Of a stretch of 64,000 bases of DNA, positions 16,815 to 16,835 are shown in pieces. Both the position numbers and the translations under genes were made by a program. The notes below the pieces were generated by a model that was not told the DNA's origin, ran no database searches, and saw only the letters and a list, made by a program, of their open reading frames with translations. Position 1 is the first letter of the stretch; every line of letters begins with the position of its first letter. The DNA comes from Escherichia coli (GTDB lineage: Bacteria; Pseudomonadota; Gammaproteobacteria; Enterobacterales; Enterobacteriaceae), in NCBI RefSeq assembly GCF_044647545.1, contig NZ_CP172818.1; one strand, written 5' to 3'.

Positions 16815-16835
<21 letters not shown>

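Follow-up and report, generated by a model that had tools for sequence, protein, structure and literature searches.

The window analysed here, a stretch of 64,000 nt of Escherichia coli DNA, contains the genes yhbO and yhbP in convergent orientation, and the coding sequences of the two genes overlap at their 3' ends. The genes at this site and the DNA shared by them are the following:

15554-16189, minus strand: yraR, the next minus strand gene downstream of yhbP
16317-16835, plus strand: coding sequence of yhbO, 172 amino acids, with the TGA stop codon at 16833-16835
16815-17258, minus strand: coding sequence of yhbP, 147 amino acids, with a TAA stop codon that is the reverse complement of TTA at 16815-16817
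16815-16835, both strands: stretch common to yhbO and yhbP, 21 nt corresponding to seven codon positions
16815-16817: TTA, the Leu167 codon of yhbO, which is read in antisense as the yhbP stop codon TAA

Convergent genes overlapping by 21 nt at 16815-16835 had been reported in the preliminary description of this DNA. The arrangement is seen in the sequence and in the list of open reading frames, and the RefSeq annotation agrees with it. As also stated there, the coding 3' ends occupy the same DNA on opposite strands. The intergenic space is zero. Both frames share the codon register in the overlap (phase 123:321, read from the sequence). The plus strand specifies L167-R-L-L-G-A172 of YhbO followed by the stop codon, and the minus strand S142-G-T-E-Q-A147 of YhbP, again followed by the stop codon. 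Opposite the yhbP stop lies the Leu167 codon TTA of yhbO, and opposite the yhbO stop the Ser142 codon TCA of yhbP. According to the raw sequence and the list of open reading frames, both stop codons are the earliest ones in frame. In RefSeq, the same overlap is annotated in the 100% identical strain FDAARGOS_497 and in K-12 MG1655, where yhbO extends from 3298974 to 3299492 and yhbP from 3299472 to 3299915; the offset between window and K-12 coordinates, taken from the RefSeq annotations, is 3282657. A 1.2-kb query around the overlap was found in 5424 of 5426 complete E. coli genomes and is 100% identical to several of them, identifying the DNA as E. coli chromosome. The standard annotation of E. 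coli thus already includes the overlap.

YhbO is a deglycase/protease of the DJ-1/PfpI family and the product of an RpoS-dependent stress gene, which is strongly induced by RpoS, 231-fold in strain EDL933 (PMC2907692). Up to its last residue, 172, it matches the chain in PDB entry 1oi4, the crystal structure of the E. coli protein, and distant homologues from S. aureus and Pyrococcus can be aligned up to residue 170 of 172. The Pfam family PF01965 (DJ-1_PfpI) spans residues 3-168, and TIGR01382 spans residues 4-171 and reaches the end of the profile. YhbP matches the NCBIfam equivalog NF002900 (YhbP family protein) with residues 1-146. No relative in the PDB was detected for YhbP by sequence search and no match was obtained in the Pfam search. 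An AlphaFold model, for which an alignment of 80 sequences served as input, has a mean pLDDT of 89.2, and Foldseek searches with this model returned PNPOx-like and heme-binding split-barrel structures. The protein is therefore predicted to adopt a PNPOx-like split beta-barrel fold. Judged by these comparisons, both yhbO and yhbP are real protein-coding genes up to their annotated stop codons, and we infer that the last six codons of yhbP are translated. A literature search for yhbP yielded essentially nothing relevant apart from the ExcludonFinder study discussed below.

For a comparison across species, one genome per species was searched, which resulted in 80 YhbP loci, all of them from Enterobacteriaceae. 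At each locus yhbO, yhbP, yhbQ, yhbS, and yraR were located by tblastn, and the frames were scanned to the first stop codon. Among the 80 loci, 51 species have intact and adjacent yhbO and yhbP genes, and the coding sequences overlap in every one of them; adjacent but separated genes occur in none of these 51 Enterobacteriaceae species. The overlap comprises 21 nt in 38 species, 15 nt in 12, and 39 nt in a single one. The 15-nt form includes Kosakonia, Pseudescherichia vulneris, and Leclercia. The 39-nt overlap is that of K. pneumoniae, where the yhbO stop codon TGA is changed to GGC and the frame is six codons longer. One more E. coli representative was left out because of a disrupted yhbO gene (apparent overlap of 238 nt). 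At the loci of 28 species, e.g. E. albertii, E. whittamii, the C. freundii group, and Kluyvera, yhbO is absent or present as a fragment only. In the Enterobacter-type loci, a 9-nt deletion brought the two genes closer to each other, and the overlap still measures 21 nt. Here, the yhbO stop codon is the antisense of the L139 codon of YhbP, and yhbO codon 172 (GCG, TCG, or ACG) is the antisense of the codon for the invariant R140 of YhbP; residue 172 of YhbO varies accordingly (A, S, or T) and the arginine of YhbP is kept. Convergent overlap as such is not rare, two of the nine convergent pairs annotated in the matching 64-kb stretch of the closest strain being overlapping, and that of yhbO and yhbP is kept in all 51 species. 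Since it is conserved at orthologous loci, the overlap is neither strain-specific nor an accident of annotation. It outlasts a 9-nt deletion as well as shifts of the stop codons, and it is lost only together with yhbO.

Codons were counted in 52 sequences, those of the 51 species and the window. The C-terminus of YhbO is nearly invariant in the codon table, reading FNREALR[LI]LGA, and in every sequence the yhbP stop lies opposite either L167 or L169, the codon there being TTA or CTA. L167 is specified by TTA or CTA in 40 of the 52 sequences (77%). The remaining 12 have CTG or TTG at L167, with TTA or CTA found at L169 instead, and this leads to the 15-nt overlap. Among the other leucine codons of the same yhbO genes, TTA and CTA together amount to 11.4%. 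Loss of the yhbP stop in the window would extend the frame by 91 codons to the next in-frame stop at 16542, and in other species 50 to 150 extra codons would typically be added; loss of the yhbO TGA in the window would add only two. The rare leucine codon thus appears to be held in place by the need of yhbP for a stop codon. Otherwise, yhbO is about as variable in the overlap as elsewhere, with third-position entropies of 0.8 to 1.6 compared to a gene mean of 1.28. Because these synonymous sites vary, the tail of YhbP can change freely, and it is indeed hypervariable (SGTEQA, SRSEDA, SRPENT, SSAQQA, AEQA, and others). In the alignment of 80 YhbP sequences, W138 and R140 are invariant and no column after R140 is conserved. 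Residues 144-147 have pLDDT values below 50 in the AlphaFold model, and the tail is accordingly predicted to be disordered. Where yhbO is missing, YhbP mostly ends at 140 to 142 amino acids, and the overlapped residues are therefore a dispensable passenger.

From these data the following arrangement is proposed. Lacking a stop codon of its own outside yhbO, the yhbP frame extends into the end of yhbO, antisense to it and in the same codon register, and terminates where a rare TTA or CTA codon of the C-terminal helix of YhbO reads TAA or TAG on the opposite strand. The last four to six residues of YhbP would be an unconstrained, disordered passenger tracking the synonymous drift of yhbO. Selection on the C-terminal residues of YhbO, together with selection on a nearby stop for yhbP, would retain the rare leucine codon.

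That one of the stop codons is wrong, or that one of the frames is not translated to its end, so that no true overlap exists, could be argued from the failure of sequence searches to find a solved structure or a Pfam match for YhbP and from the lack of conservation of its final residues. Against an artefact of this kind stand the position of both stops as the earliest in frame in the raw sequence, the fit of the YhbO C-terminus to the 1oi4 sequence and to the end of the family profile, the equivalog match covering residues 1-146 of YhbP, and the occurrence of the same sequence across thousands of E. coli genomes. In addition, the position of the yhbP stop is kept by selection on a rare leucine codon in 51 of 51 species. 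Mis-assigned stop codons had been named beforehand as the observation that could overturn the overlap; they are excluded by 1oi4 and TIGR01382 in the case of YhbO and by the cross-genus position of the yhbP stop. The artefact is effectively refuted, and its probability is close to nil.

Convergent overlaps of this type have been analysed by Lillo & Krakauer in 2007, who listed 1890 of them in 58 prokaryotic genomes and 58 in E. coli, and who pointed out that the terminators of such genes are necessarily located within the coding sequence of the partner (PMC2174442). Predicted rho-independent terminators were detected for only 20% of those E. coli genes (PMC2174442). The three phases were observed at 46, 32, and 22%, which is close to the 39, 34, and 27% expected from a model of stop codon mutation; phase 123:321 accounts for 32% of the E. 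coli convergent overlaps of more than 4 bp, with 34% expected (PMC2174442). The yhbO/yhbP pair shares with these overlaps the common 3' DNA, a phase that is one of the three common ones, and a stop codon supplied by the antisense strand, and it does not differ from them in kind. Its 21 nt exceed the very common 4-nt class, and conservation has been traced here over about 50 species, with alternative forms of 15, 21, and 39 nt. The pair is therefore a typical member of the class of convergent overlapping coding sequences.

With regard to transcript ends, one experimentally detected region and two candidate hairpins are located within the two coding sequences:

around 16445, minus strand: approximate peak of a Rho termination region, inside yhbO, about 370 nt past the yhbP stop, corresponding to K-12 position 3299102
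16761-16777, minus strand: candidate 7-bp hairpin CGGCUGG-UAA-CCAGCUG, 38-54 nt past the yhbP stop, within yhbO codons Q149-R154
17095-17117, plus strand: hairpin followed by a T6 run, inside yhbP, about 260 nt past the yhbO stop

The Rho termination region was reported on the minus strand of K-12 at 3299102, antisense to yhbO (PMC7815308, supplementary file 2). Without bicyclomycin (BCM), 77 reads were counted upstream and 20 downstream of this position, and 115 and 143, respectively, in the presence of BCM, resulting in a Rho score of 4.79 with p = 2.7e-9 (PMC7815308). The score is computed over 800-nt windows, which makes the position coarse and leaves a start of the terminated RNA at the yhbP promoter not proven; we infer that the terminated RNA derives from yhbP. 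In 100-nt windows beyond the yhbP stop, the C/G ratio of the RNA ranges from 0.77 to 1.58, with modestly C-rich stretches. The Term-seq tables of Adams et al. contain no 3' end between K-12 positions 3298800 and 3300599 (PMC7815308), a gap over yhbO and yhbP that is probably owed to low expression, and the SMRT-Cappable-seq supplements hold nothing for the two genes. The case resembles other examples of Rho-dependent termination in showing a BCM-sensitive drop of minus strand coverage in untranslated RNA, here antisense to yhbO (PMC7815308); it differs in that the region is coarse and its assignment to the yhbP transcript presumptive.

According to these data, minus strand transcription would continue beyond the yhbP stop, producing untranslated RNA that is antisense to yhbO, until Rho halts it a few hundred nucleotides downstream of the stop. 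Because there is no intergenic DNA, each transcript would have its 3' end within the partner gene. The antisense overlap of the transcripts probably extends over hundreds of nucleotides rather than 21, since the Rho region is located about 370 nt past the yhbP stop within yhbO. It had been concluded earlier that the overlap leaves no room for separate terminators. This is correct for intergenic ones, but separate termination is possible in the coding sequence of the partner, as indicated by the Rho region (PMC7815308). The accompanying claim that the transcripts are mutually antisense is borne out: since the coding 3' ends occupy the same DNA, full-length mRNAs are complementary over at least 21 nt, and the pair is included in a list of excludons derived from RNA-seq (PMC12288877).

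Instead of relying on Rho, each gene could possess its own intrinsic terminator in the coding sequence of its partner, the minus strand hairpin at 16761-16777 for yhbP and the plus strand hairpin at 17095-17117 for yhbO, in which case the antisense overlap would be short, with defined lengths of about 60 nt and about 280 nt. Both sites were flagged in a terminator scan that returned 9 sites compared to 3.4 expected in shuffled sequences, and precedents are provided by the roughly 20% of convergently overlapping E. coli genes for which rho-independent terminators are predicted within the partner (PMC2174442). The minus strand hairpin is kept in most species, each of its seven pairs being formed in 48 to 52 of the 52 sequences; on the plus strand, pair 2 of the same hairpin is formed in only one of 52. 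Moreover, the three least variable of 79 conserved four-fold-type codons of yhbO are all located in this stem, with T152 (ACC) invariant, followed by L150 (CTG) and S153 (AGC). Such invariant synonymous sites could indicate a dedicated element, but the stem overlies the conserved QLVTSR motif and consists of codons that are preferred in general, and similar invariance is seen at other Leu CTG and Ser AGC codons. Covariation beyond conservation was not detected at 16761-16777, where 96.4% of the positions are paired compared to 96.1% after shuffling, 100 of 500 shuffles reaching values as high. The hairpin is followed by a poor U-tract (AUCUUUAUC), its fold z-score is only -1.73, and termination on the minus strand is bicyclomycin-sensitive. 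At the plus strand site, stem and T-run are not conserved outside E. coli, the z-score is +0.17, and yhbP contains no region of suppressed synonymous change. A conserved intrinsic terminator of yhbO at 17095-17117 was consequently rejected, and hairpin and T6 run are probably incidental. No Term-seq 3' ends have been reported at 16761-16777 on the minus strand or at 17095-17117 on the plus strand (PMC7815308), and an Rfam search over 15400-18300 gave nothing at E <= 1. A pair of embedded intrinsic terminators is therefore considered unlikely, and the hairpin at 16761-16777 is regarded as a candidate, unproven, for a pause or 3'-end element of yhbP.

It is also conceivable that RNA polymerases meeting head-on block one another at a stem-loop within the overlap, which would generate uniform, Rho-independent 3' ends on both strands. 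Collision-driven overlapping bidirectional terminators were reportedly described by Ju and colleagues in 2019. The convergent orientation of yhbO and yhbP with zero spacing would suit such a mechanism, which has been described for hundreds of convergent pairs in E. coli that, like the pair considered here, have no space for two conventional terminators (bioRxiv 10.1101/2022.10.23.513370). Terminators of this type are intergenic, contain a stem-loop, and act independently of Rho, whereas no significant structure was predicted across the yhbO/yhbP overlap on either strand (z-scores +0.41 and -1.20) and RNAalifold returned only a weak consensus of -4.55 kcal/mol with one covarying pair. In addition, the sole experimental signal available for this locus is Rho-dependent and distal, about 370 nt further on along the minus strand, no Term-seq 3' ends are listed near the overlap, and expression of both genes is probably weak during exponential phase, so that collisions should be rare. 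The overlap does not show the properties of a collision-type bidirectional terminator, and an explanation along these lines is very improbable.

Apart from termination, a regulatory significance of the overlap had to be considered. ExcludonFinder (NAR 2025) lists yhbO-yhbP among 165 convergent excludons of MG1655, a listing that means detection in at least 50% of 58 MG1655 transcriptomes (PMC12288877). Two other pairs from the window, yhbQ-yhbS and argG-yhbX, are on the same list (PMC12288877). The neighbouring genes yhbQ and yhbS form a 14-nt convergent overlap, which is the site of a duplex captured by p19: among the entries listed from a p19-capture study, an RNase III duplex annotated "yhbQ yhbS" maps to 17578-17599 of the window. 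No duplex for yhbO/yhbP is among these listed entries. On the other side of the locus, yhbP and yraR are co-directional neighbours where yhbO is missing; in species that lack yhbO and keep yraR, the latter mostly begins 3-45 nt past the yhbP stop, and up to about 200 nt past it in one of them. When Rho is inhibited, minus strand reads continue across yhbO toward yraR (115 upstream, 143 downstream), and in the wild type about three quarters of the minus strand signal are removed by Rho before yraR is reached (PMC7815308).

These observations would permit the view that the overlap has an adaptive regulatory function, as an excludon or as a noncontiguous operon, and that yhbO on one side and yhbP/yraR on the other are thereby expressed in a mutually exclusive manner. 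RpoS-driven transcription of yhbO would collide or pair with the minus strand read-through from yhbP toward yraR, and exclusion would be brought about by RNA polymerase collision, by RNase III cleavage of the duplex, or by both. The presence of the pair on the MG1655 excludon list, an overlap never lost in 51 species, the 231-fold RpoS induction of yhbO (PMC2907692), the close co-directional spacing of yhbP and yraR at loci without yhbO, the minus strand reads crossing yhbO upon Rho inhibition, and the RNase III duplex at the overlap of yhbQ and yhbS among the entries listed are all consistent with this view. On the other hand, overlapping coding sequences are bound to satisfy an excludon criterion based on coverage only, and the entries listed from p19 capture include no duplex for this pair. 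Conservation of the overlap is explained equally well by a mutational trap, since the genes could become separated only through an insertion or through a stop codon newly arising within conserved residues. Furthermore, the three noncontiguous operons that ExcludonFinder gives for E. coli do not include yhbP-yhbO-yraR (PMC12288877), and yhbO has been deleted repeatedly with yhbP being retained. Comparison with the known systems gives a similar picture. Like the convergent excludons, yhbO and yhbP are opposite-strand neighbours with overlapping transcripts, and exactly this pair is on the list (PMC12288877), but in classical excludons it is long UTRs that overlap and expression is reciprocal, whereas the overlap considered here starts in the coding sequences. 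As in noncontiguous operons, whose genes are transcribed together past a gene on the other strand (PMC12288877), yhbP and yraR flank a gene on the opposite strand, and they adjoin where it is missing; in contrast to these operons, about three quarters of the minus strand signal are cut off by Rho before yraR, and the genes are not on the list. The pair thus fits the coverage-based definition of a convergent excludon, and any regulatory role is putative. Taken together, a regulatory device of this kind appears improbable, and interference between yhbO and yhbP, if any, would be a by-product rather than a designed switch.

A wider version includes the whole series yraR(-) yhbO(+) yhbP(-) yhbQ(+) yhbS(-), which could act as a regulatory zipper, or attenuated noncontiguous operon, in which RpoS-induced transcription of yhbO gates the Rho-attenuated read-through from yhbP to yraR. 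Alternating small genes without spacers, with two conserved convergent overlaps of 21 nt and 14 nt and mutual antisense transcripts, would conceivably be suited to this, and the hairpin at 16761-16777 would then conceivably serve as the pause or 3'-end element setting the gate. The idea is conceivable because yhbP and yraR adjoin in the absence of yhbO and because read-through occurs under Rho inhibition, but it is a speculative one and we consider it quite improbable.

The overlap of yhbO and yhbP is real, ancient, and already known; it is annotated, and the transcript overlap of the pair has been published (PMC12288877). A genuine, ancient tail-to-tail overlap with a borrowed stop codon and with 3' ends within the partner gene is very probably the explanation of what is found here. 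Taken alone, it is of little importance, the class having been analysed genome-wide since the 2000s. Should the regulatory reading hold true, an RpoS stress gene would be tied to its poorly characterised neighbours yhbP and yraR, which would be of modest interest for the field of bacterial antisense transcription. What the present analysis adds is a worked example of how an overlap may persist by using a rare synonymous codon of the partner as a stop, in which the overlapped tail of one protein would drift as a passenger of the other gene and the overlap itself survives a deletion and shifts of the stop codons.

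The gene order around yhbO and yhbP alternates in strand, yraR(-) yhbO(+) yhbP(-) yhbQ(+) yhbS(-). Annotation taken over from E. coli FDAARGOS_497, the closest-matching strain, has exact coordinates only in the central part of the window, since position-for-position agreement extends from about 14.4 kb to 47.8 kb only and indels lie outside that core (window 1-14400 and 47800-64000). In the matching stretch of FDAARGOS_497, nine convergent gene pairs are annotated, and the tightest three are exactly the three listed as excludons in MG1655 (PMC12288877). One of these entries is argG-yhbX; argG (+) and yhbX (-) are convergent with a gap of just 7 nt (window about 37324-37332). 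Another entry is the next convergent pair after yhbO/yhbP:

17309-17611, + strand, yhbQ, convergent with yhbS
17598-18101, - strand, yhbS, convergent with yhbQ

Their 3' ends share 14 nt (17598-17611), in a phase differing from that of the yhbO/yhbP overlap. Among 79 species loci this overlap measures 14 nt in 75, 4 nt in three and 25 nt in one. A p19-captured RNase III duplex, published under the label 'yhbQ yhbS', is positioned at window 17578-17599. yhbP and yhbQ diverge with just 50 nt between their start codons (17259-17308), and therefore both promoters and 5' UTRs must overlap each other or coding sequences. The sole sigma-70-like match nearby on the - strand (17152..17124) is located within yhbP.

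Inside yhbO, one further element is conserved:

16761-16777, - strand, 7-bp hairpin within yhbO codons Q149-R154

Comparison of 52 yhbO sequences, 51 from species with both genes intact and adjacent plus the window, revealed no covariation supporting this - strand hairpin. The Thr152 codon is ACC in all 52, and four-fold sites nearby are saturated.

The yhbO stop region carries a 9-nt deletion in Enterobacter-type loci (handles denote individual species loci among the 80 YhbP loci):

L031, L041, L045, L046, L048, L049, L051, L058, L060, L061, L069, L073, L076, L080

By this deletion, the yhbO stop comes to lie antisense to the codon for YhbP Leu139, and yhbO codon 172 (GCG, TCG or ACG) is placed opposite the invariant YhbP Arg140 codon. 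As residue 172 of YhbO is then variable (A, S or T) and the YhbP arginine is unchanged, the dominant constraint in these loci moves to the other gene.

In 28 of the 80 species loci yhbO is absent or present only as a fragment. Where yraR is retained in such loci, it usually follows only 3-45 nt past yhbP on the same strand; the region concerned lies just downstream of the yhbP stop in:

L007, L014, L010-L011, L016, L018-L023, L026, L029, L034, L074, L078, L082

This close same-strand spacing looks like that of an operon. In E. coli yhbO is placed antisense between yhbP and yraR (window 15554-16316 region). On this pattern, yhbO seems to have been lost through several independent deletions.
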